Positions 2,358-62,676 of a stretch of 64,000 nt of DNA are shown here, piece after piece (positions within the stretch are counted from its first letter, which is position 1; the number at the start of each line of letters is the position of its first letter). Made by a program: the position numbers and the translations under genes. Below the pieces are notes generated by a model. The model was not told where the DNA came from. It did no database searches and worked only from the letters and a program-made list of their open reading frames with translations. This DNA is from Candidatus Latescibacterota bacterium (GTDB lineage: Bacteria > Latescibacterota > UBA2968), in assembly GCA_965205975.1 (NCBI GenBank), contig OZ242195.1, forward strand, positions 3,862,656 through 3,926,655, in the 5' to 3' direction.

Positions 2358-2446
2358 CACTGGATCGCGGCTCAAGCATGCCCCTGCATGGTTTAAGCAG
2401 GGGACCATGCCGCGATGACGGGCGAGGCATGCCTCGCCCCTACAAT
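2358..2446. repeat. composite palindromic intergenic repeat (modules B+D+A)
   Basis: CTGGATCGCGGC...GCCGCGATGAC outer stem enclosing the CCCCTGCATGGTTTAAGCAGGGG hairpin, followed by the perfect palindrome GGGCGAGGCATGCCTCGCCC and then CTACA. The same modules recur about 25 times in the window. Confidence 0.85.
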
Positions 2447-5261: not shown

Positions 5262-5849
5262 TCACCAAATCTCATCCAAATCCAGTTCAAATCCCCGCAA
5301 AACGGGATCGCCAGAAATGCGCGAAGGCTGCTCCAACTCCTCTATGGGCAAGCCAGCGCGATACACATAAACGCGCCGTGCATAAGGATCGATCAACCAC
5401 CCCAAACTAAGGCCATTATCGAGATATTCCCGCATCTTTTCCTGCAATGGAGCCAACTGATCACTTTCCGACCGCAATTCAATGACAAAATCGGGACATA
5501 ATGGAACAAACTTGCGTCGGTCTTCTGAAGACAATGCCATCAGCCGCGTATATTCAATCCACGCGGCATCGGGCGACCGCACCGCCCCATTGGGCAACTG
5601 AAACCCACCTGACGAATCAAAACTCGCACCCGTACCATCCCCTTTTGCCCAAAACCGCAACTGCATAGTAATCTCTGCATTGCGCTCGCTCGTCTCACCC
5701 CCCGCTGGTGGCATAATAATCACATCTCCCTGCGCATTGCGCTCAATGCAAACATCGCGATTGAGTTGGCAAAACGCATAAAAATCCTCATCACTCACCT
5801 CGATCACCGGCTGAAAATGCAAGACAGTTTCCATCTTTGCAATCTCCAT
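5262..5849 (-). CDS. Uma2-family (DUF820) putative restriction-endonuclease-fold protein
   Basis: 195 aa with a typical Uma2 signature (FYAFCQLNRDVCIERNAQGDVIIMPPAGGETSERNAEI). Confidence 0.7.
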   Translation of the reverse strand: MEIAKMETVLHFQPVIEVSDEDFYAFCQLNRDVCIERNAQGDVIIMPPAGGETSERNAEITMQLRFWAKGDGTGASFDSSGGFQLPNGAVRSPDAAWIEYTRLMALSSEDRRKFVPLCPDFVIELRSESDQLAPLQEKMREYLDNGLSLGWLIDPYARRVYVYRAGLPIEELEQPSRISGDPVLRGFELDLDEIW

Positions 5850-9432: not shown

Positions 9433-9644
9433 AGTTAAAGAAAAATACCACAACAACCCGTATTTTCAAACTCTTTTTGTACGCTTCGCACTTGATTGGA
9501 TTGGGAAGAATATATATTTTCTCTCGTTGCAGATTGTAAGGGCGAGGCATGCCTCGCCCCTACGGTTGCTTCACACTTCACGGACCCTCTTTTTTATTTG
9601 CATTCATCTGCGTTCATCTGCGTTCATCTGCGGATCACACTTCC

Positions 9645-21991: not shown

Positions 21992-22570
21992 TTATCCAAT
22001 TAACTTATCGTAAAATAGCATGACACGCATTTCGTCTTTTATTGCCATTAAATCTTCTCCGTCCCATCCTGTAACATTGAAAAGTGTAGTCCAGGATATT
22101 GGTGTAGAAGTCTCGCCAGATTCCTCAAATTCAGGTAGAGAATGCGTATATTCTTTTAACTCTTGAAAACTCATATTTCCGTACTTTTTAAATACATCAT
22201 TCATTAATTCAATTTCTATCTCGGATAATTCCCCATCATCTACATCAAATGTTTTCAACCTCACAATATGATCTGTTTGAGAATATGAAAAGTACTTTGA
22301 CCAATATTCTCCTTTCTTCTTTTCGCATGCAAGATCATAGGTATTACTCAACACAGGACCAAAAGGCATATTGAATGGCCTGTCAAATGTTACAAGGTCG
22401 CCAAATTTTTCTAAGCCACGCCGATCAATTAGATACATCAGTTTAATGAGCTTGTACAAATCAATTTTGCCACCATTGCGTTTTGCCAACAACGTAGCGA
22501 TTTGTACGGTTTTTAACTCCTTGAAAGCGGGAACATCACTGTCGGAAACAAAAACCTTATCCTTGACCAT
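21992..22570 (-). CDS. Panacea-domain (DUF4065, SocA/PanA-like antitoxin) protein
   Basis: DLYKLIKLMYLIDRRGLEKFGDLVTFDRPFNMPFGPVLSNTYDL is the Panacea core. The ATG is at M18, with an AAGGAGG RBS. The paralog is at 59957..60661. Confidence 0.7.
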   Translation of the reverse strand: MVKDKVFVSDSDVPAFKELKTVQIATLLAKRNGGKIDLYKLIKLMYLIDRRGLEKFGDLVTFDRPFNMPFGPVLSNTYDLACEKKKGEYWSKYFSYSQTDHIVRLKTFDVDDGELSEIEIELMNDVFKKYGNMSFQELKEYTHSLPEFEESGETSTPISWTTLFNVTGWDGEDLMAIKDEMRVMLFYDKLIG

Positions 22571-22845
22571 CTTGACCTCCTTACACAGGGGAATATAAGG
22601 GGAAGGTTTGAGGTTAGACACCTTATCCTATATTAAATATAGAGAACCGATACTCCTGCGTCAAATTTTAAGGAGAATCCCTATATCCCAAACTACGCTA
22701 TTTATTGAGTTTTAACTCCTCACCTACTTCAATCTTCGCGTCAATTTTTATTCTCGTCACGGCAGCAAAACATGATCCTTGATATGGAATCGTTTTTTGT
22801 GTAAATTTAATTTGTCATTTTAGATTTACACAAAAAAACGCGCTT

Positions 22846-24000
22846 ATGAATTACCGTCCTCGACAAATTGAACCCATCCTGTCCGACTATCTCAATGCAT
22901 TCCCTGTGGTCGGCATTACAGGACCTCGGCAATCTGGAAAATCCACGCTCCTCCAGCAGGTACTGCGCGATGCTTACACCTACGTCACCTTTGACGACAT
23001 AAGACAACTGGCATTATTTGAAGACGACCCCGAAAAATTTATGCAAATGTATCACCACCGCGTTATTTTTGACGAAGTTCAAAAAGCCCCTGCACTTTTC
23101 AACCACATCAAGCTCGCCGTTGATCGAGATCGCGATACCTATGGCAAATTTGTACTCACCGGATCCAGCCAATTCACGCTCATGCAAAATGTAGCGGACA
23201 GTCTGGCAGGGCGCATTGGTTTATTGTCACTTCTCCCCTTTGATCATCGAGAATTGCCCAAAGCACTTTGTGCAACAGCGATATGGCGCGGCTGTTATCC
23301 CGAACTGGTCACGCGCCATTATCGCAATGCCGACGATTGGTATGCCTCCTATATCGAAACCTACCTCGCACGCGATGTGCGAGACGTGGCACAAATTGGC
23401 AATCTGCGCGATTTTCGGAACTTGATCCAGTTACTCGCTGCAAATACGGCCCAGATACTCAACATGTCTCGCCTCGCCAGTGACCTCGGCGTAACAATGC
23501 CCACAATCAAACGGTGGATTTCCATATTAGAAATGTCCTATGTCATCTTTCTCTTGCCCCCTTATTTTCGGAACTTCGGCAAACGGGTTATCAAACGCCC
23601 CAAAATATATTTTTACGACACGGGCCTCGTATCGGCTCTCACGGGCATTCGGACTGAAGAAATGTATGACCGCGGACCCATGGCTGGTACACTCTTTGAA
23701 AATTATATCCTATCTCAAATCCTCAAACACCACAAACACACCAATCGACGTTGTGAATTTTATTTTTACCGAACCAGTCATGGCGTAGAAATCGATCTCG
23801 TTATCGACACGGGACAAACCCGTCATTTTGTCGAAATAAAAAAAACCGCGACCTTTAGACCTCGCCTGATAAAAACACTCCATACACTCGCTTCTCAAGC
23901 CGACACAGCGACACTGATCTATCAGGGAGAATCACTGCCCGATTACAGCGGTATTCGCATTTGCAACTGGTCGAATTACCTCACCCCAAAAAAGGAGTAA
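22846..24000 (+). CDS. AAA-family ATPase with a DUF4143 C-terminal domain
   Basis: Walker A GITGPRQSGKSTLL, Walker B VIFDEVQ, and the DUF4143 region (FYRTSHGVEIDLVID). Confidence 0.85.
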   Translation: MNYRPRQIEPILSDYLNAFPVVGITGPRQSGKSTLLQQVLRDAYTYVTFDDIRQLALFEDDPEKFMQMYHHRVIFDEVQKAPALFNHIKLAVDRDRDTYGKFVLTGSSQFTLMQNVADSLAGRIGLLSLLPFDHRELPKALCATAIWRGCYPELVTRHYRNADDWYASYIETYLARDVRDVAQIGNLRDFRNLIQLLAANTAQILNMSRLASDLGVTMPTIKRWISILEMSYVIFLLPPYFRNFGKRVIKRPKIYFYDTGLVSALTGIRTEEMYDRGPMAGTLFENYILSQILKHHKHTNRRCEFYFYRTSHGVEIDLVIDTGQTRHFVEIKKTATFRPRLIKTLHTLASQADTATLIYQGESLPDYSGIRICNWSNYLTPKKE

Positions 24001-25436: not shown

Positions 25437-25739
25437 GATCGCAGACGGGAAGGCACACGCAGGGGCGAGGCATGCCTCGCCCCTACACGAATTAACAATA
25501 TCACCACCTTTACAATTTATCTTGCATATAAGAGGAGAATGACTATATTGCATATCGAGTGAGAACGCGGAATTGCGGGTATTAGTCATTCTTTCGCAGA
25601 GCCTCCCCTATCTCTGCTAACTGTGCCCTTCCTCACCTTCCGAGTATCTCGCTTTTTTTCCCTCTACAATTCGTTCCGACTCTCTATTTCTATCAGAGAG
25701 CGGTGTAGTTATGTTTCACATCTCTTAAGGAATCCCGTC

Positions 25740-27240: not shown

Positions 27241-27338
27241 ACCTTCTGGATCGCGGCTCAAAACCATGCCGCGATGACGGGCGGGTACGGGGACCCGCCC
27301 CTACAATCTGGATCGCAGATCAATAAAGGAACATCACA

Positions 27339-27995
27339 ATGCCCGGCATCATCTTCTGGGATGTTGATACCCAATACGACTTCATCATGCCCGACGGCAA
27401 ACTCTACGTCACCGCATCGGAAAAACGCTTGCCAAATCTCAAAAAACTCACAGACTATGCCAGACAGCGGGGCATCCCCATCTACGGCTCGGTTGACAAC
27501 CACCAGATAGCAGACCCTGAAATCTCCGACACCCCGGACTTTCAGGAGACCTTTCCGCCCCACTGCATAGCTGGAACCTCTGGACAAAAAAAAGTACCCG
27601 AAACCCAACCGCAAAACCCCCTCTGGATCGACCCGGACGCCTCGGGCGGCCTCATCGACCAAGTACAAAAACACCGCGGTGAAATCATCTTTCGCAAACA
27701 GCACTTTGACGTCTTCACCAACCCCAACGTCGAACCCGTACTCAACGCCATCAAACCCGACCGCATCGTCCTCTACGGCGTAGCCCTCGACGTCTGCAAC
27801 GCCTACGCAATTAACGGCTTCTTAAAACGCAACACAGCGCCCATACAACTCGTCCTGGACGCCGCACAAGCCATCGACCCCGAACGCGGCGACCGCATGG
27901 TAGCCGAATGGCGACAACAGGGCGTTGAAATCGTATCGACGGATGAAATTGTCAACCCTAAAAACGTAAAAGCAACCACAGATGAACACAGATAA
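27339..27995 (+). CDS. isochorismatase-family cysteine hydrolase
   Basis: IFWDVDTQYDF, the nucleophile context in VLYGVALDVCN, and the family length. The C-terminal 7 codons (ATTDEHR) are supplied by repeat module C. Confidence 0.7.
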   Translation: MPGIIFWDVDTQYDFIMPDGKLYVTASEKRLPNLKKLTDYARQRGIPIYGSVDNHQIADPEISDTPDFQETFPPHCIAGTSGQKKVPETQPQNPLWIDPDASGGLIDQVQKHRGEIIFRKQHFDVFTNPNVEPVLNAIKPDRIVLYGVALDVCNAYAINGFLKRNTAPIQLVLDAAQAIDPERGDRMVAEWRQQGVEIVSTDEIVNPKNVKATTDEHR

Positions 27996-28112
27996 ACACA
28001 GATGAAAAGCAAAAGCCTGCCCCTGCATGGTGTTGAGCAGGGGGCAAAAAACTCTGGATCGCGGCTAAAAACCATACCGCGATGACGGGCGACCACAAGG
28101 GTCGCCCCTACA
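27970..28112. repeat. composite intergenic repeat (modules C+D+B+A variant)
   Basis: AGCAACCACAGATGAACACAGATAAACACAGATGAAAAGCAAAAGC; the CCCCTGCATGGTGTTGAGCAGGGGG hairpin; CTGGATCGCGGC..GCCGCGATGAC; GGGCGACCACAAGGGTCGCCCCTACA. Confidence 0.85.
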
Positions 28113-29922: not shown

Positions 29923-30060
29923 AGCAACCACAGATGAACACAGATAAACACGGATGAAAGGCAAAAAGCGAAAGGCAAAATCAAAATCAAAACCTCTGGA
30001 TCGCGGCTAACACCATGCCGCGATGACAGACGGGACGGCACAGGGGCCGTCCCCTACGGA
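29923..30060. repeat. composite intergenic repeat (modules C+B+A variant)
   Basis: AGCAACCACAGATGAACACAGATAAACACGGATGAAAGGCAAAAAGC...; CTGGATCGCGGC..GCCGCGATGAC; GGGACGGCACAGGGGCCGTCCCCTAC. Confidence 0.85.
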
Positions 30061-30069
30061 GATCTCGAC

Positions 30070-30612
30070 ATGGACCTCATGGTACAACAACTCATCCCCG
30101 AAACCATTGACTTATGTCAAAACGGTGACAGCCTGATCCTCTTTGCCGACGGAGAAGAACTACACATCGATCACATCGTGCGATGTTTTCCCTTTTCCAC
30201 GCCCGATCAATGGATCAGCCTCCGCGACCGGGACAGAACCGAACTCGGCCTCTTGCCCACACTTGACGGATTAAATGCACAATCGCGGACACTCGTTGAA
30301 GAACACCTCAAAGACCGCTACGACATCCCCCAAATCCAGACCATACTCAACATCGAAAGCAACAAAGAAGGCGGCACAAACTGGGACATTGACACCAACG
30401 CGGGACCTATGAACTTCACACTCCGAGGCGACCAGAACCTCAACCTCAACGCATTTCCCGAAATCGTATTCACCGACGCCATAACGCGCAAACGCTACAA
30501 AATCCCCGACTATACCAAACTCGACCGCGCCAGCCAAAAAACCGCCCGCGCGTACCTGCCCATGAGCTCTCGCCACTACTCCGGGCGCCGCGGCGGCAGG
30601 AGTGGAAGGTAA
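30070..30612 (+). CDS. hypothetical protein (180 aa) downstream of the ABC exporter
   Basis: An ORF with a clean start. No family confidently recognised. Confidence 0.45.
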   Translation: MDLMVQQLIPETIDLCQNGDSLILFADGEELHIDHIVRCFPFSTPDQWISLRDRDRTELGLLPTLDGLNAQSRTLVEEHLKDRYDIPQIQTILNIESNKEGGTNWDIDTNAGPMNFTLRGDQNLNLNAFPEIVFTDAITRKRYKIPDYTKLDRASQKTARAYLPMSSRHYSGRRGGRSGR

Positions 30613-30802
30613 AAAAAACGGGCGACCACAGGGGGTCGCCCCTACAATACCTTCTGGATCGCACGGGACGGCACAGGGGCCGTCCCCTACACCATGCCTG
30701 CCCCTGTATGCTTTAAGCAGGGGCCGCGATGACATGCCTTTAACGTCTTGTATCTTACGTTTTATCGGTGTTTATCGGTGTTCATCTGTGGTTGCATTTC
30801 CC
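30613..30802. repeat. cluster of palindromic repeats (A variants, B, D, C reversed)
   Basis: GGGCGACCACAGGGGGTCGCCCCTACA; CTTCTGGATCGC..; GGGACGGCACAGGGGCCGTCCCCTACA; CCCCTGTATGCTTTAAGCAGGGG; the reversed C module TTATCGGTGTTTATCGGTGTTCATCTGTGGTTGCAT. Confidence 0.85.
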
Positions 30803-32260
30803 CTACTTCCCCCTTCTCGACCCCATCATCTTCGACGCGATCTCGACCTCCTCGGCAAACGCCTCTGCCTCATCGTCATACGTATCAAACGGATCGCGGA
30901 AACTCAAATGGAATTCATTTTCCAAATACACCGAATCCCAATCCACAATATACCGCACCCGATTTTGCGACAACGTCTTCACCATTGCCGCCCGCGCCTT
31001 TGCCCGCGTATCAGCCGGAGGCGCCCCACAAGCCTCTTCAACGCGCTCATCCGTCAGCACCCGCTGCATCTTACCCTGCTGCACCAGATCAAAATACAAC
31101 CCGCGATTGGGATCGATATTGTGATACTCCAAATCCAAACTCTGCAACCACGGATCGTTCCAACTCAAATTCTCCGACTCGCGAAACGCATCCAACAACC
31201 ACTTCTTAGCCACCCAGTCCAAACGATCTGTCAACTGCATCGGATCGGACTCCAGATCATCAAGTGTGCGCTCCCACTCATCCAGCACCCAATCTGACTC
31301 CTCATCCAAACCCCTCAAATGGCGTTGCGCCAAATCCAAATACGTGCGCTGTATATCAATAGCCGAAATAGACCGCCCATTCTGCCGATCCAGAATCCAC
31401 TTATGTGTCGGATCCCGCGAAATCTCCTTCAATGCCCACACCGGATCCCCCAGATCCACATCCTGAGGAAAAATTTTGCGCTCTAAGAGATTCAGCACCA
31501 TCGCAGTCGTACCAACCTTCAAAGCCGTCGCATACTCCGACATATTCGAATCGCCCACCAGAAGGTGCAAACGGCGGTACTTGCTGTGATCTGCCAGCGG
31601 TTCATCTCGCGTATTGATAATCGCGCGAGAAAACTGAATCCACTGATAAATCTCTGTAACAATATGATCGGCACGCTGAGAAATCTGGAAAGAAACCGCA
31701 TCCTCTGTATCGGCGGCATCTCGCACATTTTGCCCATAATAATAAAAACTATCATCATAACTGCCCACGCGACCTGCACCGCAAAAAATTTGGCGCGTCA
31801 CCAAGAACGGCAACAACGCGGGAATAACAACCGTTGAAAACGGCACATTGCGCCTGACCAGATAATTTTCATGACAGCCAAACGTCGCACCCGTATAATG
31901 ATCGATATTATTCTTCAAAAACGAAGCTTCTTTAGCCAACCCCAGCGCGTGCAATGCCCGATACAAAATACAATCGCCCGCCCGATCAAAAGCCACAATA
32001 TCCCACAACCCCATACACTCCGGCGTGGCGTATTCCAGATGCCCCATATCGATATAAACCCGCCCCGCATTAAACAAAAAACCCCCATTGCCCGGGGGTT
32101 CATCCCGTCCGCGATAGTGAATATCTACAATCCCTATTCGGTCAACGTGAAAAATGTGATCCTTTACCTTCACCGAAATCGTATCTGGACTCACAAAACC
32201 CTCGTGCTCGGGTGCCAAACACCCATACTCGGTTTCTATGCCAAAAATGCGATCTCTCAT
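30803..32260 (-). CDS. Pup-ligase-family protein (PafA/Dop homolog), paralog 2
   Basis: N-terminal MRDRIFGIETEYG is the Pup-ligase/deamidase signature, and the carboxylate-amine ligase fold has the expected length (485 aa). A second paralog lies at 34274..35797. Confidence 0.85.
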   Translation of the reverse strand: MRDRIFGIETEYGCLAPEHEGFVSPDTISVKVKDHIFHVDRIGIVDIHYRGRDEPPGNGGFLFNAGRVYIDMGHLEYATPECMGLWDIVAFDRAGDCILYRALHALGLAKEASFLKNNIDHYTGATFGCHENYLVRRNVPFSTVVIPALLPFLVTRQIFCGAGRVGSYDDSFYYYGQNVRDAADTEDAVSFQISQRADHIVTEIYQWIQFSRAIINTRDEPLADHSKYRRLHLLVGDSNMSEYATALKVGTTAMVLNLLERKIFPQDVDLGDPVWALKEISRDPTHKWILDRQNGRSISAIDIQRTYLDLAQRHLRGLDEESDWVLDEWERTLDDLESDPMQLTDRLDWVAKKWLLDAFRESENLSWNDPWLQSLDLEYHNIDPNRGLYFDLVQQGKMQRVLTDERVEEACGAPPADTRAKARAAMVKTLSQNRVRYIVDWDSVYLENEFHLSFRDPFDTYDDEAEAFAEEVEIASKMMGSRRGK

Positions 32261-32278
32261 GGGGGGGCCTCAATGATA

Positions 32279-32336
32279 GATGGGCGAGGCATGCCTCGCT
32301 CCTACAATCGGGCAACCACGAGGGTTGCCCCTACAA
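32279..32336. repeat. two tandem A-type hairpin repeats between prcA and the pafA-like gene
   Basis: GGGCGAGGCATGCCTCGCTCCTACAATC + GGGCAACCACGAGGGTTGCCCCTACAAT. Confidence 0.85.
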
Positions 32337-33122
32337 TATAAACGGTGCCAGCGCGGGCGCAATCTCTTCTGCATCGACATTGCGATATTTGTTTTTACCC
32401 ACCTGCGACCGCCCCAACACCACCGCCTCCACCTCCAAATCCACCAACGCCGTCTCAAGCACATCAGCCACATCGACCGCCCCAGCCACCTGCTCCAACT
32501 CGTCGGCATCTGTAGGTACCTCTTCCATCTTCCCAATCCATCGCCCGATTGCCCAGGCGCGAAGCGCAGCACCTGCGGCATCTGACAAAGACAACGCCTC
32601 CGTATCCAAACCCGACAACTCGCGCACCATCATCACATCTGCCTCCACAACACCCCCCACAGCAACACATCCCTCGTGCCGATAAAACGCACCATCGTAA
32701 TCCACCGTATAAAAAATCTGCGCCCCCTCCTGCCCATCCAACTCCGCCAGAAGCACCCGCGCCAAAAACGGAGACCGCACCACATCGTCAAACCCCGCCT
32801 TCATCGCAGGACCCAGACCAAAATACACAATCTGGCGCAACGTCACATCGTCCTCTGAATAATTAAACCCAATCGAATGCGCCATATCAATCGCAGCCTG
32901 CCTGAGCTTCTCGATATCCGTCGAATGCCCAATCGCCGCAAGTCCGATGCAGTCGTACACCTCAAACACCTTTTGCTGACTCTGCGACAGCGTCAGCAAC
33001 AAAATCCCATCCTCGTACCCAACACCCACAACCGGACTCCCCGTCCGAATCTGATCTTCGATATAATCGCGCCGATTCGCAACAGCCTCTGCCCAGCGAT
33101 ACGGCTCATCTGACAACATCAT
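32331..33122 (-). CDS. prcA: 20S proteasome alpha subunit
   Basis: 263 aa of Ntn-hydrolase family lacking the N-terminal Thr. It sits immediately downstream of the beta subunit with a 4-nt overlap. Confidence 0.8.
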   Translation of the reverse strand: MMLSDEPYRWAEAVANRRDYIEDQIRTGSPVVGVGYEDGILLLTLSQSQQKVFEVYDCIGLAAIGHSTDIEKLRQAAIDMAHSIGFNYSEDDVTLRQIVYFGLGPAMKAGFDDVVRSPFLARVLLAELDGQEGAQIFYTVDYDGAFYRHEGCVAVGGVVEADVMMVRELSGLDTEALSLSDAAGAALRAWAIGRWIGKMEEVPTDADELEQVAGAVDVADVLETALVDLEVEAVVLGRSQVGKNKYRNVDAEEIAPALAPFIL

Positions 33123-33922
33123 GCGCGTCCCGCCTCCTCCCCATCCACATATTGAACATAGAGCTGCCGCAACGCCTCGGTCTCGATCTCTTCCAGACCC
33201 GACGCCGTAATCGTCTTCACCGACGGAAAAATATCAGCCGACCGCTCGTATCGACCCGTCGCCGAATCGTATTCTGACGCTGTATCCAGAAGCTGAAGCG
33301 CGTGCCCGATAGCCGCATCGCGATCCATCTCCACAAACCGCCGACCGCTCCAGCGATTCAAATAATACATCGCCCCGCGAATCGCCGGCGACCCCGACCC
33401 CGTCGTCGTAAAATCGGCGCTCTCGAACTGCGCCCCCAGCGCATCGTAAAAATAAATTTTACCCCGCGCATCCACCTGATCATACGTCGCAAAAATGGGA
33501 ATCACAGCACCAATACCCTGCATCGCCATCGGCAAATTATCCTTAATCAACAGCGACAACCTGCGCAACTTCGCCTGCAAACTCATCTCCTGAAGCAAAC
33601 GACGGCGATAATACTGAAATGCATGCTCCAAAATTCGCGCAATCTCAAACGCAATAGACGGCGATCCCGAAATCGCCATCACAGAATACGCATCCAGATC
33701 AATCACCTTATCCGCGCGATCATAAAGCACCATATTGCCCGCTGTAGCGCGGCGATCACCTGCAACGAGCACCCCATCGGCATATTGAAATGCCAGAATC
33801 GTCGTCGCATCCGTCGGCTCAAAAGGCAAATCGCGCTCGGACTGAACATCGCCCAAATTTTCACCTGGGAACCGGTAGCCCGTCTGCCGCAGCAAATCGA
33901 CAAAATCCCCACCCGATTGCAT
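33119..33922 (-). CDS. prcB: 20S proteasome beta subunit
   Basis: Propeptide, then TTILAFQYADGVLVAGDRRAT (active-site Thr context) and GSGS. Confidence 0.85.
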   Translation of the reverse strand: MQSGGDFVDLLRQTGYRFPGENLGDVQSERDLPFEPTDATTILAFQYADGVLVAGDRRATAGNMVLYDRADKVIDLDAYSVMAISGSPSIAFEIARILEHAFQYYRRRLLQEMSLQAKLRRLSLLIKDNLPMAMQGIGAVIPIFATYDQVDARGKIYFYDALGAQFESADFTTTGSGSPAIRGAMYYLNRWSGRRFVEMDRDAAIGHALQLLDTASEYDSATGRYERSADIFPSVKTITASGLEEIETEALRQLYVQYVDGEEAGRA

Positions 33923-33925
33923 AAG

Positions 33926-34117
33926 CTACTCGCCTGTACGCTGGCGATAACGCCGCGCCTGATTGGGATCAACGCGCCGCATGCGCCGCAGCAAATCGCG
34001 CGTATCTGGCCGCTCCACCTTCGGGCGCGCAGGGCCACCATCGCCATCATCACCAGGACCAGGACCTCCCGGATCGACTGGCTTCGTCCGTCGCTCAAAC
34101 TGCAAGACCTTATCCAT
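33926..34117 (-). CDS. prokaryotic ubiquitin-like protein of the UBact type (Pup homolog ending in RTGE)
   Basis: 63 aa, Gly/Asp/Pro-rich and apparently disordered: MDKVLQFERRTKPVDPGGPGPGDDGDGGPARPKVERPDTRDLLRRMRRVDPNQARRYRQRTGE. The conserved C-terminal ...RQRTGE and the position between the dop/pafA-like gene and prcB both fit. Confidence 0.75.
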   Translation of the reverse strand: MDKVLQFERRTKPVDPGGPGPGDDGDGGPARPKVERPDTRDLLRRMRRVDPNQARRYRQRTGE

Positions 34118-34202
34118 CTACGGCCTCCTTAATGAAAAATGTCTGAATCAGGATTTACAGGATTATAGGATGAAAAACAAAATCAAAACCAACAGCAAAA
34201 TC

Positions 34203-34240
34203 TTCTGGATCGCGGCTTACACCCTGCCGCGATGACAATC
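34203..34240. repeat. B-type palindromic repeat
   Basis: CTTCTGGATCGCGGCTTACACCCTGCCGCGATGAC. Confidence 0.85.
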
Positions 34241-34273
34241 ACCCCTCACACTTCACACTTTCTCCTTCACACT

Positions 34274-35797
34274 TCACACTTTCTCCAACGCAGCTAAAAA
34301 ACTTTCCAACGTCTCCGAACGATCAAGCACCTCATTATAACGCTCTACCCGCTCCGCATCCACCAATAATTTCATATCCACTGCATGCTGGCGGCCATTG
34401 CGCTTAAACACAATGCGATCCCAGTTAATCGACGACACATAATCGCCGAACTTCTCCAAACTGCGCCCTCGAAAATACGCCCGCGTACCCGAAGGCGGTT
34501 CCGACATCGCCGCAGCCACCTCATCATCGCCCACCAGACGCACCATCTGCCCCTGCGACTCCAGCAAATAATACAAACCCGCATCCCGATCCACATTGCT
34601 ATACTCCAGATCCTGACTCTGCATCCAGAACAAATCATCGGGATTATCCCACGCCAGATTCTCCGCCTCGCAAAAACTATCGATCAACCACTTCTTCGTC
34701 ACCCAATCGCACACACCCACCAGATCCATCGGATCGCGGCTCAACTTCTCCAACACATCTTCCCACGCCGACAACACCCAATCCGTCTCTCGATCCCGCC
34801 CGGCAAACTCGCGCCGTGCCAAATTCAAAAACGCATCCTGAATCTCAACCGCGGGAACGAGGCGATGGCCGGGCCCCTCCACCTCAACCAACCACGCATG
34901 CGACTGATCCCGCGCGATATTCTTCATCGCCGCAATCGGATCCTTCAACCGATAATCCGGCAAACAATCCGCCTCAATCAAATCGATCACCAGCGCCGTT
35001 GTCCCCACCTTAAGCGCCGTAATATACTCCGACATATTGGCATCGCCCACAATTACATGCAACCGGCGATATTGCGCCGCATCTGCGTGGGGTTCATCGC
35101 GCGTATTCACAACCGGACGCTTGTGCATCGTATCCACACTCGCGATCACCTCAAAAAACTCCGCGCGCTGCGACAACTGATAAATCGGTGCGCGATCCTC
35201 CCGCTCAACCCCCACCTTGCCAGCCCCGCAAAAAATTTGCCGCGTGGGGAAAAACAACAACAACCCCTTCAATATACGCTCGAAAGGCACCGAGCGATCC
35301 ATCAAATAATTCTCGTGACACCCATAGCTATGCCCTTCAAAATCCGTATTATTCTTATACATCCGCACAGTGCCCTGATCGAGCATCTCCGTCCGCCGCT
35401 GCGCGCAAATATCCACAATGCGCTCCCCCGCCTTATCCTGTGCCACAAGCTCGAACAAACTTATGCACTCACCCGTCGAATACTCTGGATGCGTATGATC
35501 GTTGTAAAACCGGGACCCATTGTAAATAATCAAATCGCTCTTCAATTCCTTAAACGGAATCTTGCGCTTGCGATCCTGTTGCAAATGCACCTTTTCATCG
35601 ACATCATTCAACAGATTTTTAACTTCAAACCCCCGCTCATCCCGACGGGGATTCTCCAGCCGATAATCCCACAACGGAACAAACTTACCCTGCTGATAGC
35701 ACCGAATCAACTGCATTGACTCTTCCACCACATCGACCTTATCCACCTCGTCAATCGTGATTCCGTATTCTGTTTCTATACCGAATAAGCGCGTCAT
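34274..35797 (-). CDS. Pup-ligase-family protein (Dop/PafA homolog), paralog 1
   Basis: MTRLFGIETEYG at the N-terminus. 507 aa, homologous to 30803..32260 throughout (GCHENYL, RQIFCGAGKVG). Confidence 0.85.
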   Translation of the reverse strand: MTRLFGIETEYGITIDEVDKVDVVEESMQLIRCYQQGKFVPLWDYRLENPRRDERGFEVKNLLNDVDEKVHLQQDRKRKIPFKELKSDLIIYNGSRFYNDHTHPEYSTGECISLFELVAQDKAGERIVDICAQRRTEMLDQGTVRMYKNNTDFEGHSYGCHENYLMDRSVPFERILKGLLLFFPTRQIFCGAGKVGVEREDRAPIYQLSQRAEFFEVIASVDTMHKRPVVNTRDEPHADAAQYRRLHVIVGDANMSEYITALKVGTTALVIDLIEADCLPDYRLKDPIAAMKNIARDQSHAWLVEVEGPGHRLVPAVEIQDAFLNLARREFAGRDRETDWVLSAWEDVLEKLSRDPMDLVGVCDWVTKKWLIDSFCEAENLAWDNPDDLFWMQSQDLEYSNVDRDAGLYYLLESQGQMVRLVGDDEVAAAMSEPPSGTRAYFRGRSLEKFGDYVSSINWDRIVFKRNGRQHAVDMKLLVDAERVERYNEVLDRSETLESFLAALEKV

Positions 35798-35895
35798 AAT
35801 TCAGTCCCGAACCACCACCTGCGGGCGGGCACAAGACCCGCCCCTACAATTTTTCCATCTGCGTCCATCTGCGTCCATCTGCGTCTATCTGCGGA

Positions 35896-37536
35896 TCACA
35901 CCACACCATGCCCGCGGGTGCGTCGTTCTCGCCTGGGGCGAATCGGTGCTGCGCGCACCACATTTTCCGGATCGTAATCCAGCAACTTCAACCAATCCTC
36001 TGTATTATCCGTCGGCGGGAAAATCTCATTCTCGCTATACTCCGTCTCAATCCCCGCGAGCAAATCGTCAAAACCAATCCCATCTTCCGCGCCAGAAGCA
36101 ATACACCGCTTAATCGCAATCTCCTTCGCACGCTGCGCAATAGACTCGAGAATTGCCCCACTACACAGATCTCCGCGACTCAACACTTCCTTCCGACCGC
36201 TTCTAAGCGTCACCTCCAAAAAACGCGTATCATCGCGCCTGGCATATATCTCTGCAATCGCGCGCGCCACCAGATCGTCAACTGCTGCCCGCACATTGCC
36301 ATCATGCACATTTAACGCAGCCTCTGACAGCGGCAAATCAGCCGTCAAATAAATACCCAAAATCTCGCGCGCCGCATCCATATCCGGTCGAATAACCTTG
36401 ATCTTGCGATCAATTCTCCCCGGACGCAAAATCGCCGGATCGATCAAATCTGGACGATTGGACGTCAAAATAATCACCACATCTTGCAGTGACTCGATCC
36501 CATCCATCTCGGAACAAAACATCGGCACAACCGTATTTGAAATATTGTGCGACCGAATTGCCCGCCGCGTCCCCAAAACCGACTCTGCCTCGTCGATAAA
36601 CACCACCGGCAAAAATCCCTCGCGCCGCTTCTCCCGCGCCTGGGAGAAAATCTCGCGCACCTTGCGTTCAGACTCTCCCAACCACATATTCAAAATCTCA
36701 GGACCCTTAATATGCATAAAACACGCCTTGAGATTCAGGCCGTCTTCCTGCACCTGCCGCTCCAGATTGTACGCCGTCGCCTTCCCAATCAGCGTCTTGC
36801 CACACCCCGGCGGACCGTACAACAAAAACCCCTTGGGCGTACTGTACTGAAACCGCTTAAACAACTCTGGATGCAACACCGGCATCTCAATCGTATCTTT
36901 AATCGCCTGAATCGCATCCTTTTGTCCACCGATCTTCTCCCACGGCAAATCGGGCACTTCCTCCAAATAAAAATCCTTAACCTCGCACATCTTCTCCAGC
37001 GCCACGCGAAAATGCGGATCGATACGCACCTCTTCGCCCGCCTTCAAAGCCTCGGCCTCCAGATCTGCCCCTCGCAGCAGAACATGCGTCTGCGAACCGT
37101 GCTCTTGCCCCACCTGCAAACGCCCATCGTCCAGCACATCGACAATTTTGCCCACAGTCCCCGACGGAGACTCCCCCATATCGCCCACCACGGCAAACGC
37201 CTCATTGACCAGCACGCGCGTACCCACCCTCAAACTGCGGTCATCCAACCGCGAATCCACATTCGCATAATACTCCGCCCCCCCCACCGTAAGATACGCG
37301 ATACCATTCTCTGGCGGTGCCAACAGCGTCCCCACCCGATTGGCCGGAGCCGTCACCTTCTCCAGCGCCCCTTCCAGCTCCACAATCGTGCGCCTCGCCT
37401 CTTCAAACGTAATCTCATCTTCCTGAAGCTGCCGACGCAACTGGTACAACAGGGGCCGCCGTCGATCCGTCTCATCCATCGTCATCAAAATTTGATCGAT
37501 AATCGACAACGACTGAAACGTATGCTGCATATCCAC
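35896..37536 (-). CDS. proteasome-associated AAA+ ATPase (Mpa/ARC family)
   Basis: N-terminal coiled coil, an OB/inter-domain, and an AAA module with Walker A GPPGCGKT, Walker B VVFIDEAES and a second-region-of-homology SNRPDLIDPAILRPGRIDRKI. 546 aa. Confidence 0.85.
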   Translation of the reverse strand: MDMQHTFQSLSIIDQILMTMDETDRRRPLLYQLRRQLQEDEITFEEARRTIVELEGALEKVTAPANRVGTLLAPPENGIAYLTVGGAEYYANVDSRLDDRSLRVGTRVLVNEAFAVVGDMGESPSGTVGKIVDVLDDGRLQVGQEHGSQTHVLLRGADLEAEALKAGEEVRIDPHFRVALEKMCEVKDFYLEEVPDLPWEKIGGQKDAIQAIKDTIEMPVLHPELFKRFQYSTPKGFLLYGPPGCGKTLIGKATAYNLERQVQEDGLNLKACFMHIKGPEILNMWLGESERKVREIFSQAREKRREGFLPVVFIDEAESVLGTRRAIRSHNISNTVVPMFCSEMDGIESLQDVVIILTSNRPDLIDPAILRPGRIDRKIKVIRPDMDAAREILGIYLTADLPLSEAALNVHDGNVRAAVDDLVARAIAEIYARRDDTRFLEVTLRSGRKEVLSRGDLCSGAILESIAQRAKEIAIKRCIASGAEDGIGFDDLLAGIETEYSENEIFPPTDNTEDWLKLLDYDPENVVRAAPIRPRRERRTRGHGVV

Positions 37537-37675
37537 ATAGTCCTGAAGAAAATCTTCAGGTGACTTTCTCTGACGATCAGAATCATTGGTATTGATGGGT
37601 CACCTCCGGATCAGGATGTGCAGGAAAGATTTTCTGAAGAATACCATATCTCAAAACCCGTGTCAAGCCGCGAGA

Positions 37676-37700
37676 CGGGCGAGGCATGCCTCGCCCCTAC
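37676..37700. repeat. A-type palindromic repeat
   Basis: GGGCGAGGCATGCCTCGCCCCTAC. Confidence 0.9.
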
Positions 37701-38632
37701 TCCTTCTCCAACTTCTCTAACTTGCGCTCCATATCGATCTTAACCTCGGCGACAATATTGGCAATCGGATCCCGCTTCCCCGCTTTAATCACCACGGGCC
37801 TATCGATATTAAAATGCACCTTGTGCTCCATCACCAGGCCGCGCGTCGCATCGATCACCCACGACCCCCCGCCTGTACCCTTCCCATTGTAATACAAAGA
37901 AGCCGCACTCACATCGATCCACCCCGCGTACATCACCTCACTATCCTCATCGATATGCACCTCCACGCGCCCCTTCTCCTGCTTGATATTCTTCACCTCA
38001 TACGTACTCTTAATTTTAATCTCCGAATCGCGCCCCAGCATATCCATACTCGCAAAAGGACGCCAAAAAACGCGCTCCCCCGTCCAGGTATCGCCCTTAT
38101 TAACCGGACCCTCTGGCAAAACCGGTGCAAACGCCGGCATCGCCCCCTGGTACATATCCGTAATCAAATCCTGCCGCTCCACGCGAAACGCGGGAAAATC
38201 CGGCTCGAACTTCTGCGCTATGCCCTCGGGCGTCACCTGCCAGGTAAAAACCCTGTCATTAAACATATCAAACGTAAACGGAAACTGCTCATACGTCTGC
38301 TTCTCACCCAGAAAAATCGCTGCACTCGCCCCCTTTTTAATCTCAGCGCGGATCCCCATCACCCCTTCGGGAATCGTCCGCCCCGGCAATGCCCGGGGCA
38401 CAACCACCTCTTCATGGCTGCGCCACTCATTATCTATAATCACGCGAATATGCCCGCTCCGCATCACAATCTGCTCGCCCTGATTGCTGTAATACTCCAC
38501 CCGGAACTTGTGCTTATATCGCGCCTTGCGTCCTTCCGGAAACTTCAATGCCAGCACAGTGGGTTGCGCCCAACAATCGGCGGCAACACCGGCGAGTAAC
38601 CCGAGAACAATCGTTAATTTCCACATAAGCAC
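37697..38632 (-). CDS. secreted hypothetical protein (signal peptide)
   Basis: MWKLTIVLGLLAGVAADCWAQP signal. 311 aa. No family recognised. Confidence 0.5.
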   Translation of the reverse strand: MLMWKLTIVLGLLAGVAADCWAQPTVLALKFPEGRKARYKHKFRVEYYSNQGEQIVMRSGHIRVIIDNEWRSHEEVVVPRALPGRTIPEGVMGIRAEIKKGASAAIFLGEKQTYEQFPFTFDMFNDRVFTWQVTPEGIAQKFEPDFPAFRVERQDLITDMYQGAMPAFAPVLPEGPVNKGDTWTGERVFWRPFASMDMLGRDSEIKIKSTYEVKNIKQEKGRVEVHIDEDSEVMYAGWIDVSAASLYYNGKGTGGGSWVIDATRGLVMEHKVHFNIDRPVVIKAGKRDPIANIVAEVKIDMERKLEKLEKE

Positions 38633-39964: not shown

Positions 39965-40028
39965 TGCAACCACAGATGAACACAGATAAACACGGATAAA
40001 TGACGGGCGAGGCATGCCTCGCCCCTAC
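39965..40028. repeat. C-module direct repeat plus A-type hairpin
   Basis: GCAACCACAGATGAACACAGATAAACACGGATAAATGAC + GGGCGAGGCATGCCTCGCCCCTACA. Confidence 0.9.
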
Positions 40029-40225
40029 AGGTGTTCACACTTCAACCATCGTGCTCGAATATAGTTTCACATATATAATACCGCAATAACAAAAAAAAGG
40101 CCACTGGACAAAATGTCCAGTAGCCTTTTTAAATCGGCACCGTCCCAGGAATCGGCGCCATCCTCACGGGCGTAAAATTTTACGCCCCTACAATCATCTG
40201 CGTACATCTGCGTACATCTGCGGAT

Positions 40226-51100: not shown

Positions 51101-51350
51101 GGATGTACAGGATTAAAGGATGTACAGGATGAAAGGCAAAAGCAAAAGGCAAAAAGCATCCGCAGATGACGCAGATGACGCGGATGAAAAGGCGAAAGGC
51201 AAAGGCAACCACAGATGAACACCGATGAACACGGATGAAAAGGCGAAAGGCAGAGGCGAATCCGCAGATGACGCAGATGACACAGATAAAAGGCAAAGGC
51301 AAAAGCAAACCTTCTGGATCGCGGGTAACACCACCCCGCGATGACACCTT
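51101..51350. repeat. array of short direct repeats plus a B-type palindromic repeat
   Basis: CAGGATGTACAGGAT..., CCGCAGATGACGCAGATGACGCGGATGAAAAGGCGAAAGGCAAAGGCAACCACAGATGAACACCGATGAACACGGATGAAAAGGCGAAAGGC..., CTTCTGGATCGCGGGTAACACCACCCCGCGATGAC. Confidence 0.85.
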
Positions 51351-62623: not shown

Positions 62624-62676
62624 AATATATTCCCGGAATATTAAGCGGGCGGGCACGGAGGCACCGCCCCTACAAT

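Follow-up and report, generated by a model that had tools for sequence, protein, structure and literature searches.

The window (the whole 64-kb stretch of DNA analysed) comes from Candidatus Latescibacterota and contains the following genes, in the order mpa-dop-ubact-prcB-prcA-pafA:

35896..37536, minus strand: Mpa/ARC-type proteasomal AAA+ unfoldase (546 aa; profile matches)
34274..35797, minus strand: Dop-type enzyme (507 aa, MTRLFGIETEYG; Pup_ligase 509 bits)
33926..34117, minus strand: UBact, a Pup-like tag (63 aa, ending ...RYRQRTGE)
33119..33922, minus strand: 20S β subunit PrcB (267 aa; PF00227 89 bits)
32331..33122, minus strand: divergent 20S α subunit PrcA (263 aa; PF00227 37 bits)
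30803..32260, minus strand: PafA-like paralog (485 aa, MRDRIFGIETEYG; Pup_ligase 486 bits)

An ORF check recovered all six minus-strand reading frames at exactly the coordinates of the original prediction, and the HMM searches that it had proposed matched every gene to the expected Pfam and NCBIfam families, far beyond chance. The claim of a full, co-directional locus is thus upheld, and the six genes, whose identity and intactness are directly apparent, are an intact and ordinary copy of a UBact (Pup-like) tagging and proteasome operon. We consider it very probable that this chromosomal Latescibacterota operon encodes a UBact tag-and-degrade pathway and that the hairpins interspersed in it belong to a genome-wide family of REP-like mobile repeats. 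The non-actinobacterial host deduced from T9SS sorting domains and sulfatases was also borne out, and both of these are present in the window. No pafBC, bpa/pafE or cpa gene was found among the window ORFs scanned. The window as a whole shows an extreme strand compositional skew.

Relationship to known tagging systems

Loci in public genomes that are 95-97% identical to that of the window are all from Latescibacterota. Within this phylum, L001-L012, L057 and L062 encode Dop-type proteins 94-97% identical to the one described here, the other proteins being 88-100% identical. The six-gene order is the same in ~65 of the 78 loci fetched, which derive from Latescibacterota, Verrucomicrobiota, Armatimonadota and MAGs labelled Gemmatimonadota. 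Operons of this kind are already annotated in databases and are carried by many non-actinobacterial bacteria. NCBI names the small protein ‘ubiquitin-like protein UBact' and already labels Latescibacterial proteins as UBact; the phylum is reportedly absent from those named in the 2017 UBact paper of Lehmann et al. An early notice of non-actinobacterial Pup-like systems (Iyer, Burroughs, Aravind 2008, PMC2588565) had already listed Methylacidiphilum, which is represented among the homologous loci (L064, L065). The UBact conjugation and proteasome loci of Gram-negative bacteria were then described by Lehmann, Udasin, Livneh and Ciechanover (2017, BBRC 483:946, as cited in PMC5751360). The window locus does not differ in any essential respect from these known loci, which likewise have non-actinobacterial hosts, a disordered tag ending in RTGE with UBact profile matches above the cutoffs, and a tag gene flanked by a Dop-type gene and prcB, mpa lying further upstream and a second member of the Pup-ligase family further downstream; what sets the copy in this lineage apart is the many REP-like repeats scattered through it. 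Its genes and their order also correspond to those of the actinobacterial Pup-proteasome (Mycobacterium, Rhodococcus, Corynebacterium), with which it shares a catalytic Asp, a GhExE motif and a Thr1 β subunit. The five large proteins nonetheless all score under NCBIfam's actinobacterial equivalog cutoffs.

The N-terminal half of UBact is disordered and rich in Gly, Pro and Asp, while the C-terminal half is Arg-rich and conserved. The protein scored 70 bits against PF20513 and 80 bits against NF033388 (cutoff 35), and, unlike actinobacterial Pup, had no match to Pfam Pup at E<=0.1, in agreement with its earlier placement in the UBact class. Its conserved C-terminal 30 residues have a net charge of +5, compared with about −9 for M. 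tuberculosis Pup. The tag ends in RTGE where actinobacterial Pup has GGE or GGQ; a Gly-Glu end for ligation through the γ-carboxylate is common to the two systems. Because the tag is encoded with a terminal Glu, no deamidation step would be needed. The original prediction was correct that this Glu is directly encoded, but it is not the special feature it was taken for: among the best 120 of 257 UBact homologs terminal Glu is the majority state (97), 96 ending in RTGE and 22 in RTGQ. A terminal Glu is likewise known from Pup, where Dop then serves chiefly as a depupylase and is required by such species for depupylation only (review, PMC12288473).

The ubact start codon has its own upstream Shine-Dalgarno sequence, AAGGAGG, 3 nt separate the ubact stop codon from prcB, and prcA starts inside prcB, with an overlap of 4 nt. 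PrcB has a 39-residue propeptide with a DA|TTILAF cleavage context, and alignment to Rhodococcus and Mycobacterium β subunits places Thr1 (TTILAF), Asp17 and Lys33 in the expected positions, confirming that the predicted Thr1 context is that of a proteasome β subunit. The protein scored 109 bits against the Rhodococcus subunit and 173 bits against TIGR03690 (cutoff 192). PrcA scored 84 bits against TIGR03691 (cutoff 139) and 52-56 bits against the M. tuberculosis and Rhodococcus α subunits (Rhodococcus 56).

The unfoldase has the architecture of actinobacterial Mpa, comprising an N-terminal coiled coil, two OB domains, an AAA domain and a C-terminal tail, which is basic here. It retains Walker A (GPPGCGKT), Walker B (FIDEAES) and pore-loop (WLG) motifs, and matched Pfam AAA (114 bits), Prot_ATP_ID_OB_N (50 bits) and Prot_ATP_ID_OB_C (53 bits), as well as TIGR03689 pup_AAA (459 bits, under the 505-bit cutoff). 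Residues 43-527 align to M. tuberculosis Mpa structures with 337-338 bits. The extreme C-terminus differs: UBact-type Mpa proteins end in [GSKR]-[VI]-[VI] (...GHGVV in this case), of which [VI][VI] is conserved across 70 loci, in contrast to the actinobacterial GQYL motif, which is essential in mycobacteria (PMC12288473).

We found no experiment on any UBact system in the searchable literature, and all activities of the operon products are therefore inferred from homology with the actinobacterial Pup-proteasome. By this analogy, the PafA-like ligase would attach UBact to target-protein lysines by an isopeptide bond. The Mpa/ARC hexamer would capture the disordered tag through its N-terminal coiled coils, unfold the substrate and feed it into the PrcA/PrcB 20S core for cleavage at the Thr1 active site, while the Dop-type enzyme would take the tag off again, permitting depupylation and recycling. 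That the locus is instead a degenerating or non-functional remnant, or that the small ORF encodes something other than a conjugated tag, perhaps a proteasome cofactor or chaperone, appears highly improbable. Such a reading could appeal to the lack of biochemical proof of UBact conjugation and to the strong divergence of the α subunit noted above, but it is difficult to reconcile with six intact ORFs that retain their catalytic motifs and with a gene order and tight coupling kept across phyla. Furthermore, the last 30 residues of UBact are nearly invariant and strictly end in Gly-Glu or Gly-Gln, as γ-carboxylate chemistry requires, and conservation of the tag goes together with that of a ligase-type and a hydrolase-type paralog.

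Two Pup-ligase-family paralogs

The Pup_ligase scores listed above place both paralogs firmly in this family. Which of them is the ligase and which the de-conjugase had been regarded as unresolved. The assignment can, however, be largely settled from their sequences, since alignment reveals a Dop-loop and Dop residues in the upstream paralog and their replacement by PafA residues, with no loop, in the downstream paralog. The upstream protein contains the GIETEYG motif, the catalytic-Asp motif N-D100-H-T-H-P-E-Y-S-T, H237 and W459. Its Dop-loop (residues ~36-90) is ~11 residues longer than that of actinobacterial Dop, but the key aromatics are common to both: W43 and Y45 align with Dop W47 and F49, and H237 and W459 are the counterparts of H231 and W453 in the published π-stack. 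At the discriminating positions of Table 1 of Hecht et al., S27 and DH(T)HPEYST are outright Dop states, Ile31 replaces the Val31 of Dop conservatively, and neither enzyme has the residues present at the Val/Leu position (Asn99) and the Pro/Ala position (Gly109). The Dop model of NCBIfam scored 450 bits against 346 for PafA, and Acidothermus Dop matched over its full length with 391 bits versus 253 for PafA. An HMM of the upstream clade gave actinobacterial Dops 455-491 bits, compared with 344-357 from the downstream-clade HMM. The AF2 model (pLDDT 82.5) has TM scores of 0.83-0.85 to Dop structures and 0.71-0.76 to PafA. These data indicate that the upstream paralog is probably the UBact depupylase (or a deamidase for tags with a terminal Gln).

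The downstream paralog is the probable UBact-protein ligase, as it lacks the Dop-loop and contains PafA-diagnostic residues. Its motifs are GIETEYG, the catalytic-Asp motif I-D71-M-G-H-L-E-Y-A-T-P, QRADH199...FS211R and IVD440W, and it is PafA-like at His199, Ser211, Asp440 and Ala78. It also has an insertion before the α-loop and a C-terminal DPF tail. The NCBIfam PafA model (379 bits) covers residues 4-469, compared with only residues 61-448 for Dop (370 bits). In a low-confidence AF2 model (pLDDT 55.5), residues 199-210 form a helix, and the best fold matches are, by a small margin, PafA structures.

Overall, however, the downstream paralog is not closer to Corynebacterium PafA than to Dop, with phmmer scores of 255 bits for PafA and 303 bits for Dop. 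Cg PafA in turn scored 353 bits on the HMM of the UBact Dop-type clade but 314-327 bits on that of the PafA-like clade. The protein lacks the one-residue insertion of PafA after the catalytic Asp, having D-M-G-H in place of D-V-G-S-H, the conserved His of DEPHAD is replaced by Leu, and its α-loop core, HIVTEIYQWIQFSR, is unlike WEGxSSA of actinobacterial PafA; the insertion before the α-loop is in the same place but without sequence resemblance. In neighbour-joining bootstraps the three actinobacterial sequences clustered together in 138 of 200 replicates, and the orthology split was recovered in 44. These observations could suggest that the pair stems from a duplication of its own, separate from the Dop/PafA split of actinobacteria, the downstream enzyme being a convergent Dop-loop-less ligase rather than a PafA ortholog. 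We regard this as unlikely. The tree was built by a distance method with a single, N-terminally truncated PafA, so long-branch attraction is likely, and in a maximum-likelihood analysis the PafA and Dop of Nitrospirae each fell inside the actinobacterial cluster of that enzyme (Hecht et al., PMC7947786). The downstream paralog shares the DPF tail with PafA and has the PafA states His188, Ser200, Asp439 and Ala72 at positions experimentally shown to switch activity, while an Armatimonadota member of its clade, L075, carries the PafA-type D-x-VGSH insertion.

Intergenic repeats and candidate transcription signals

The spacers and flanks of the operon contain the following elements:

37638..37666, minus strand: candidate operon promoter (TTGACA, 17 nt, TG-TATTCT), ~100 nt upstream of mpa
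35823..35847, minus strand: GTAG-prefixed REP-like palindrome in the mpa-dop spacer (GTAGGGGCGGGTCTTGTGCCCGCCC; no T-run after it)
34202..34236, minus strand: second dispersed element in the dop-ubact spacer, a TCATCGCGGC...GCCGCGATCCAGAAG hairpin with GCGATCCAGAAG copies
32282..32334, minus strand: two GTAG-prefixed REP-like palindromes in tandem that occupy the prcA-pafA spacer (no T-run after them)
30611..30690, minus strand: REP-like hairpin cluster downstream of pafA (−66.6 kcal/mol, z = −4.2)

The hairpins that the original prediction placed in the prcA-pafA and mpa-dop spacers therefore exist. Those between prcA and pafA are GTAGGGGCAACCCTCGTGGTTGCCC (32310-32334) and GTAGGAGCGAGGCATGCCTCGCCC (32282-32305) on the minus strand, and the TAG stop codon of prcA falls within the GTAG of the first. 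This spacer folds with −31 kcal/mol (z = −2.1). In the mpa-dop spacer, four tandem 10-bp CGCAGATGGAC units (35853-35893) precede the palindrome.

A dedicated role in processing or attenuation, which had also been proposed, is unsupported, because the family is dispersed and its positions in the operon differ among close relatives. The REP-like element occurs 12 times in the window in a single orientation (0.04 expected), with stem variants GCGAGGCATGCCTCGC, GCGACCC..GGTCGC and GCGGG...CCCGC; GCGATCCAGAAG is also present in 12 copies, all on the minus strand (0.3 expected). Among relatives whose proteins are 95-97% identical the REP site lies between mpa and dop (L001), dop and ubact (L003, L004, L007, L009) or prcA and pafA (L002, L005, L010), and no element was found inside the operon in L008, L057 and L062. 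Relatives at 86-92% identity have the operon without it, the operons of L013-L015 and L019 contain none, and the prcA-pafA spacer varies from 11 to 132 nt with or without a REP. The intergenic hairpins thus belong to a mobile REP-like repeat that occurs genome-wide and are not conserved parts of the system.

It is quite unlikely that the hairpins serve the operon in RNA processing, attenuation or differential stability and so control the stoichiometry of mpa, dop, ubact-prcBA and pafA. Stable stem-loops do lie on the transcribed strand in two spacers, the terminal copy resembles an intrinsic terminator, and E. coli REP elements can stabilise upstream mRNA segments. Set against this, some of the copies adjoin unrelated plus-strand genes, to which they are antisense, no internal copy is followed by a T-run, the complete mpa-dop spacer is no more stably folded than shuffled sequences (z = +0.9), and the element shifts or is missing in the relatives described above. 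The hairpins may still incidentally stabilise or punctuate the transcript.

Like Proteobacterial REPs, the window repeats are short, GC-rich imperfect palindromes with a conserved 5′ GTAG. They are also intergenic and multicopy, form tandem clusters in places and change position from one close relative to the next, as do REPs and BIMEs, and one orientation prevails relative to the compositional (replication) strand. They differ in having several stem variants and in their host phylum, Latescibacterota. Proteobacterial REP/BIME elements are mobilised by RAYT (TnpA-REP) transposases; the 64-kb window contains no RAYT gene.

In the cluster downstream of pafA, the last hairpin (30620-30645) is followed by T8, giving a terminator-like GGGCGACCCCCTGTGGTCGCCC then GTTTTTTTT, and this REP-like copy probably terminates the operon. 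At the other end, the candidate promoter upstream of mpa has 10 of 12 consensus matches and an extended −10 TG, an assignment by consensus match only.

Gene content of the operon

Profile searches identified all six genes of a complete UBact-type locus with two paralogs of the Pup-ligase family, as the original prediction had proposed, and the minus-strand open reading frames it described, with their N-termini, the TTILAF context and the RQRTGE terminus, were all correct. The operon comprises the following genes:

35896-37536, minus strand, mpa, proteasomal AAA+ ATPase (AAA 114 bits, both proteasomal-ATPase OB domains, TIGR03689 459 bits)
34274-35797, minus strand, upstream paralog of the Pup-ligase family (Pup_ligase profile, 509 bits)
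33926-34117, minus strand, UBact (PF20513 70.4 bits, cutoff 27.8; NF033388 80.2 bits, cutoff 35)
33119-33922, minus strand, prcB, proteasome beta subunit (above the PF00227 cutoff)
32331-33122, minus strand, prcA, proteasome alpha subunit (above the PF00227 cutoff)
30803-32260, minus strand, downstream paralog of the Pup-ligase family (Pup_ligase profile, 486 bits)

The genes are closely packed, with 3 nt between the ubact stop and prcB and a 4-nt overlap of prcB and prcA. A promoter-like site (TTGACA, 17 nt, TG-TATTCT) lies ∼100 nt upstream of mpa, and ∼160 nt downstream of the last gene there is a GC hairpin with T8 after it. In this Latescibacterota bacterium the UBact-proteasome operon is intact and typical. 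No pafBC, bpa or cpa accessory genes were present among the window ORFs scanned.

The Mpa homolog matches the structure of M. tuberculosis Mpa over residues 43-527 (338 bits) and displays the coiled coil, double OB and AAA architecture by which Mpa/ARC proteins are recognized. PrcB aligns with the Rhodococcus beta subunit (109 bits), including Thr1, Asp17 and Lys33, and its TTILAF motif follows a 39-residue propeptide, bearing out the predicted Thr1 context. PrcA aligns with the Rhodococcus alpha subunit at 56 bits and keeps the lysine of the QKVFEVYD segment, which we take to correspond to Lys52 of M. tuberculosis PrcA. All five large proteins score below the NCBIfam actinobacterial equivalog cutoffs, the values for the core being 173 against 192 (beta) and 84 against 139 (alpha).

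The small protein (63 aa) ends in RQRTGE directly before the stop codon, an end of the R-[TS]-G-[EQ] type that marks UBact. The matches to both UBact profiles, the T-G-E terminus and the lack of any Pfam Pup hit at E≤0.1, UBact being the only family reported, place it in the UBact class rather than with actinobacterial GGQ/GGE Pup, as originally proposed. Among its best 120 homologs 96 end in RTGE, 22 in RTGQ and 1 in RSGE, a Glu terminus in 97 and a Gln terminus in 22. The encoded terminal Glu had been singled out as dispensing with deamidation and implying a division of labour between ligase and depupylase; the reasoning is right but not new. Glu, found in 97 of 120 homologs, is the norm. 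Pup with an encoded Glu is well known, and Dop is then read as chiefly a depupylase and recycler (PMC12288473).

Activities predicted for the two paralogs

Hecht et al. (PMC7947786) list what distinguishes Dop from PafA and which changes turn either activity into the other. PafA and Dop references were rebuilt from PDB alignments, and both paralogs were aligned to them together with homologs from 16 loci. The upstream paralog aligns with Acidothermus Dop over its full length (391 bits). As had been suggested, both paralogs were inspected for the Dop-loop insertion, which is found only in the upstream protein; the loop aligns with residues 36-83 of Acidothermus Dop and is 11 residues longer than in actinobacterial enzymes. 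Within it Trp43 and Tyr45 match Dop Trp47 and Phe49, while His237 and Trp459 match Dop His231 and Trp453, which form a pi-stack with the loop tryptophan (PMC8599861). In Dop the loop comprises ∼40 residues, and its conserved tryptophan inserts into the nucleotide pocket. Trp43, Tyr45, His237 and Trp459 are invariant in 39 homologs. The catalytic-Asp motif, D100-H-T-H-P-E-Y-S-T-G, is of the Dop form (D-H-A-H-P-E-Y-S-T-P in Dop) and has no insertion, and Ser27 and Ile31 are present. The protein departs from Dop-type residues at Asn99 (for Val), Gly109 (for Pro) and Ile31 (for Val31).

Profile and structural comparisons point the same way. The upstream paralog scores 450.3 bits on the Dop model TIGR03688, below the cutoff of 492.3 and 105 bits above its PafA score. 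Reciprocally, an HMM of the upstream clade gives actinobacterial Dops 455-491 bits and that of the other clade 344-357 bits, a preference of ∼110-135 bits; this reciprocal scoring settles the matter for Dop, though not for PafA. The AF2 model (pLDDT 82.5) superimposes on Dop structures with TM scores of 0.83-0.85, versus 0.71-0.76 for PafA, and at the alpha-loop equivalent residues 212-214 make a short helical turn and residues 217-221 a strand. These sequence and model data identify the product of 34274-35797 as a Dop-type enzyme.

In the downstream paralog a short unrelated segment takes the place of the Dop-loop. Residues specific to PafA are Ala72, Thr73 and Ala74, an insertion of Val65, Gly66 and Ser67, Asp439 and, in the alpha-loop, His188, Trp190, Glu191, Gly192, Ser194, Ser195, Ala196, Arg199 and Ser200 (Table 1 of Hecht et al., PMC7947786). 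The downstream protein has the PafA state at His199, Ser211, Asp440 and Ala78, equivalent to PafA His188, Ser200, Asp439 and Ala72, and also contains Thr79 (in EYAT). Ahead of the alpha-loop it has an insertion where PafA has one, and its C-terminal tail, with a DPF motif, aligns only with PafA. The one-residue insertion is missing (D-M-G-H, not D-V-G-S-H), Ala74 is replaced by Pro, and Leu occupies the position of His in DEPHAD. The core of the alpha-loop reads VTEIYQWIQF in place of WEGVSSATTR. A PafA-type D-x-V-G-S-H insertion does occur in L075, a related Armatimonadota locus whose protein forms a clade with the downstream paralog in 200 of 200 bootstrap replicates. The PafA side of the alignment consists of a single N-terminally truncated reference, with positions 37 and 41 outside the aligned part.

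Overall similarity does not separate the two families for this protein, which scores 379.4 bits on the PafA model TIGR03686 (cutoff 551.3) and 369.7 on the Dop model, and which phmmer matches to Dop (303 bits) above PafA (255 bits). In neither the reciprocal HMM test nor a neighbour-joining (NJ) tree does it group with Corynebacterium (Cg) PafA. The bootstrapped NJ tree, probably affected by long branches, gives no resolved placement, because the only actinobacterial PafA it includes is the N-terminally truncated one rebuilt from PDB alignments. In the AF2 model (pLDDT 55.5) residues 199-210 form a helix at local pLDDT below 50, a helix at this point being typical of PafA and a loop of Dop. 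Foldseek ranks PafA first by a narrow margin, lending weak support given the low confidence of the model.

With a similarity to Dop at least as high as to actinobacterial PafA, the protein may have arisen independently, or through very early neofunctionalization, from a Dop-like ancestor, and the downstream clade does have its own invariant alpha-loop (HIVTEIYQWIQFSR). Orthology to PafA is the more likely reading from the aligned sequences, given the discrete characters in common with PafA and a published maximum-likelihood tree that includes Nitrospirae proteins (PMC7947786). The absence of the Dop-loop, the PafA states, the insertion ahead of the alpha-loop, the DPF tail and the L075 insertion together make the product of 30803-32260, with reasonable confidence, the candidate ligase. 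The original prediction had left open which paralog is the ligase and which the de-conjugase; loop, residues, HMM scores and fold now settle the Dop-type enzyme, while residue signatures, not overall similarity, indicate the PafA-like one. This residue-level assignment tells which gene to try as ligase and which as depupylase. Current annotation does not distinguish the two, since NCBI names both 'proteasome accessory factor PafA2 family protein' (30803-32260 and 34274-35797; proteins P0144, P0145, P0245 and P0250), and JGI names members of both groups 'proteasome accessory factor A', with 'Pup amidohydrolase' used only for some Dop-type members.

Distribution and departures from the mycobacterial model

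A scan of one genome per species recovered 454 stretches encoding Dop-type relatives, the closest of which (88-97% identical) are all from Candidatus Latescibacterota MAGs or complete chromosomes. In tblastn searches with all six proteins the order mpa-dop-ubact-prcB-prcA-pafA was present in ∼65 of 78 fetched loci, including MAGs labelled Gemmatimonadota, Handelsmanbacteria and Planctomycetota as well as Verrucomicrobiota (Methylacidiphilum) and Armatimonadota. The operon is flanked by genes for an ABC exporter, DUF1854, NamZ, sulfatases, a TRAP transporter, aconitase and large T9SS-tailed proteins. The proposal of a non-actinobacterial host stands, and the T9SS tails and sulfatases cited for it do occur in the flanks. 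Ordinary chromosomal flanks, together with a base composition that is uniform across locus and surroundings, argue that the operon is native and vertically inherited within the phylum. Nothing suggests horizontal acquisition, for composition and skew match the flanks and identity declines smoothly within the phylum.

The system itself is already known and carries little weight as a discovery. Non-actinobacterial Pup-like systems, including that of Methylacidiphilum, were described bioinformatically by Iyer et al. in 2008 (PMC2588565), and UBact was named by Lehmann et al. in 2017, as cited in PMC5751360; the tag has its own Pfam and NCBIfam models. Databases hold proteins 94-99% identical to UBact and to both paralogs, the three products searched, and the small protein of Latescibacteria is listed at NCBI as 'ubiquitin-like protein UBact'. 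For experimental work on UBact, or for Pup systems in Latescibacteria, the searchable literature yielded passing citations only, and no experimental report of UBact-lysine conjugation. UBact tagging has, as far as that literature shows, never been demonstrated experimentally. The practical value of the locus is modest and lies in its use as a template for such a demonstration.

The Mpa homolog ends in RTRGHGVV and does not contain the C-terminal GQYL docking motif, which is essential in mycobacteria (PMC12288473). This was surveyed in the mpa genes of the fetched loci (L001-L078; window positions 35896-35960), from Latescibacterota, Verrucomicrobiota, Armatimonadota and MAGs labelled Gemmatimonadota. 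In each of the 70 complete Mpa homologs encoded at UBact loci the last two residues are [VI][VI] or, rarely, a close variant (AI, II), and none has GQYL or a penultimate Tyr. The tail consists of [GSKR]-[VI]-[VI]-COOH after a basic or hydrophilic linker of 15-20 residues that follows a DYDPENVV motif. The tag also differs, the conserved C-terminal 30 residues of UBact having a net charge of +5, compared with about −9 in M. tuberculosis Pup.

The differences in Mpa tail, charge and equivalog scores from the mycobacterial model suggest altered tag recognition and core docking. That the UBact branch amounts to a mechanistically shifted variant of the Pup system, and not a relabelled copy, is a reading we consider unlikely. 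Three features would speak for it: the charge-inverted, Arg-rich recognition helix of the tag (+5 against the acidic Pup), an unfoldase that would dock on a very divergent alpha ring through its conserved C-terminal [VI][VI] rather than through GQYL or an HbYX-type penultimate Tyr, and a ligase paralog that may be an independent or very early derivative of a Dop-like ancestor. Were it true, this well-conserved operon of Latescibacterota would lend itself to a first biochemical reconstitution of UBact tagging. The deviations are traits common to the family of the known system and not peculiarities of this window, and the non-GQYL tail and basic tag are concrete differences from the mycobacterial model to expect.

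Dispersed repeats and strand bias

The hairpins within the operon had been proposed as processing or attenuation sites, a role that the data do not support. Matches to GTAGGGGCR...YGCCC number 12 in the window against 0.04 expected, and every one is on the minus strand:

2420-2443, minus strand, REP-like copy
9540-9563, minus strand, REP-like copy
25463-25486, minus strand, REP-like copy
27279-27304, minus strand, REP-like copy
28087-28111, minus strand, REP-like copy
30620-30645, minus strand, REP-like copy
32310-32334, minus strand, REP-like copy
35823-35847, minus strand, REP-like copy
37677-37700, minus strand, REP-like copy
40005-40028, minus strand, REP-like copy
40168-40191, minus strand, REP-like copy
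62647-62673, minus strand, REP-like copy

Among near-identical Latescibacterota loci with 95-97% identical proteins, the copies inside the operon occupy the mpa-dop spacer (L001), the dop-ubact spacer (L003, L004, L007 and L009) or the prcA-pafA spacer (L002, L005 and L010), or are missing (L008, L057 and L062); no copy lies in the operon of relatives at 86-92% identity. None of the internal copies has a T-run, and shuffled sequence folds as well as the mpa-dop spacer taken as a whole; terminators or attenuators were rejected on these grounds and because positions vary. With a 5' GTAG, a GC-rich palindrome, many dispersed intergenic copies and positions that differ between relatives, the in-operon hairpins are REP-like mobile insertions. 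No RAYT transposase was present among the window ORFs scanned. The copy followed by T8 after pafA is the sole one whose sequence looks like a functional terminator.

Some copies adjoin plus-strand genes and are antisense to their transcription. As all 12 lie on the minus, G-rich strand whatever the direction of the neighbouring gene, orientation follows the DNA strand and not transcription, as expected of mobilization through single-stranded DNA at the replication fork. The TAG of the 5' GTAG provides the stop codon of prcA (...APFIL*; 32331-32334) and of a DUF6263-like gene at 37697-38632 (...LEKE*; 37697-37700); in both, the repeat abuts or has reshaped the 3' coding end. The 3' end of pafA reads ...AAG TAG GGG.

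Two further repeats are dispersed in the window. One, with a copy in the dop-ubact spacer (…GCGATCCAGAAG), is a hairpin in which TCATCGCGGC and GCCGCGAT enclose the loop, with CCAGAAG after it. Its 12-mer has 12 matches where 0.3 are expected, 8 of them exact and 4 with a single mismatch; all are on the minus strand, REP copies often lie beside them, and those at 40244 and 60643 appear to fall inside coding sequence. The other is a 10-bp tandem unit, C[AG]CAGATG[AG]AC, with 26 matches against 4 expected, in short runs located right after or before genes on both strands; the mpa-dop spacer holds four units. Translated, the unit yields the recurring 'ICVHLWL'-type pseudo-peptides of spurious ORFs.

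Second element, minus strand, 12-mer starts: 11248, 27243, 29993, 30651, 34202, 40244, 51311, 53492, 55952, 57111, 60643, 60897
10-bp tandem unit, short runs: 9602-9632, 27977-28007, 29929-29949, 30780-30790, 35853-35893, 39971-39991, 40202-40222, 51210-51230

Strand composition is extremely asymmetric: the plus strand of the whole window has a GC skew of about −0.3 and an AT skew of about +0.2. With the plus strand as reference, and for genes on either strand, third-codon GC skew is mostly −0.4 to −0.74 (−0.09 to −0.36 in three genes) and third-codon AT skew lies for the most part between +0.3 and +0.65, with extremes of −0.02 and +0.85. The asymmetry, seen also in L001-L012, L057 and L062, is as large in the nearest Latescibacterota relatives (0.21-0.30), falls to 0.14-0.22 in the next clade and is ∼0 in distant members. 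It suggests a very strong mutational bias between replication strands that is specific to the lineage, and accounts for the many long spurious antisense ORFs. GC content falls to 0.43 at 22-24 kb of the window, a patch containing a SocA/Panacea-domain antitoxin-like gene (21992-22621, minus strand) and a DUF4143/AAA_14 ATPase gene (22846-24000, plus strand). This pair, and a Uma2-family putative endonuclease gene (5262-5849, minus strand) that adjoins aconitase, may be small mobile or defence-related inserts.
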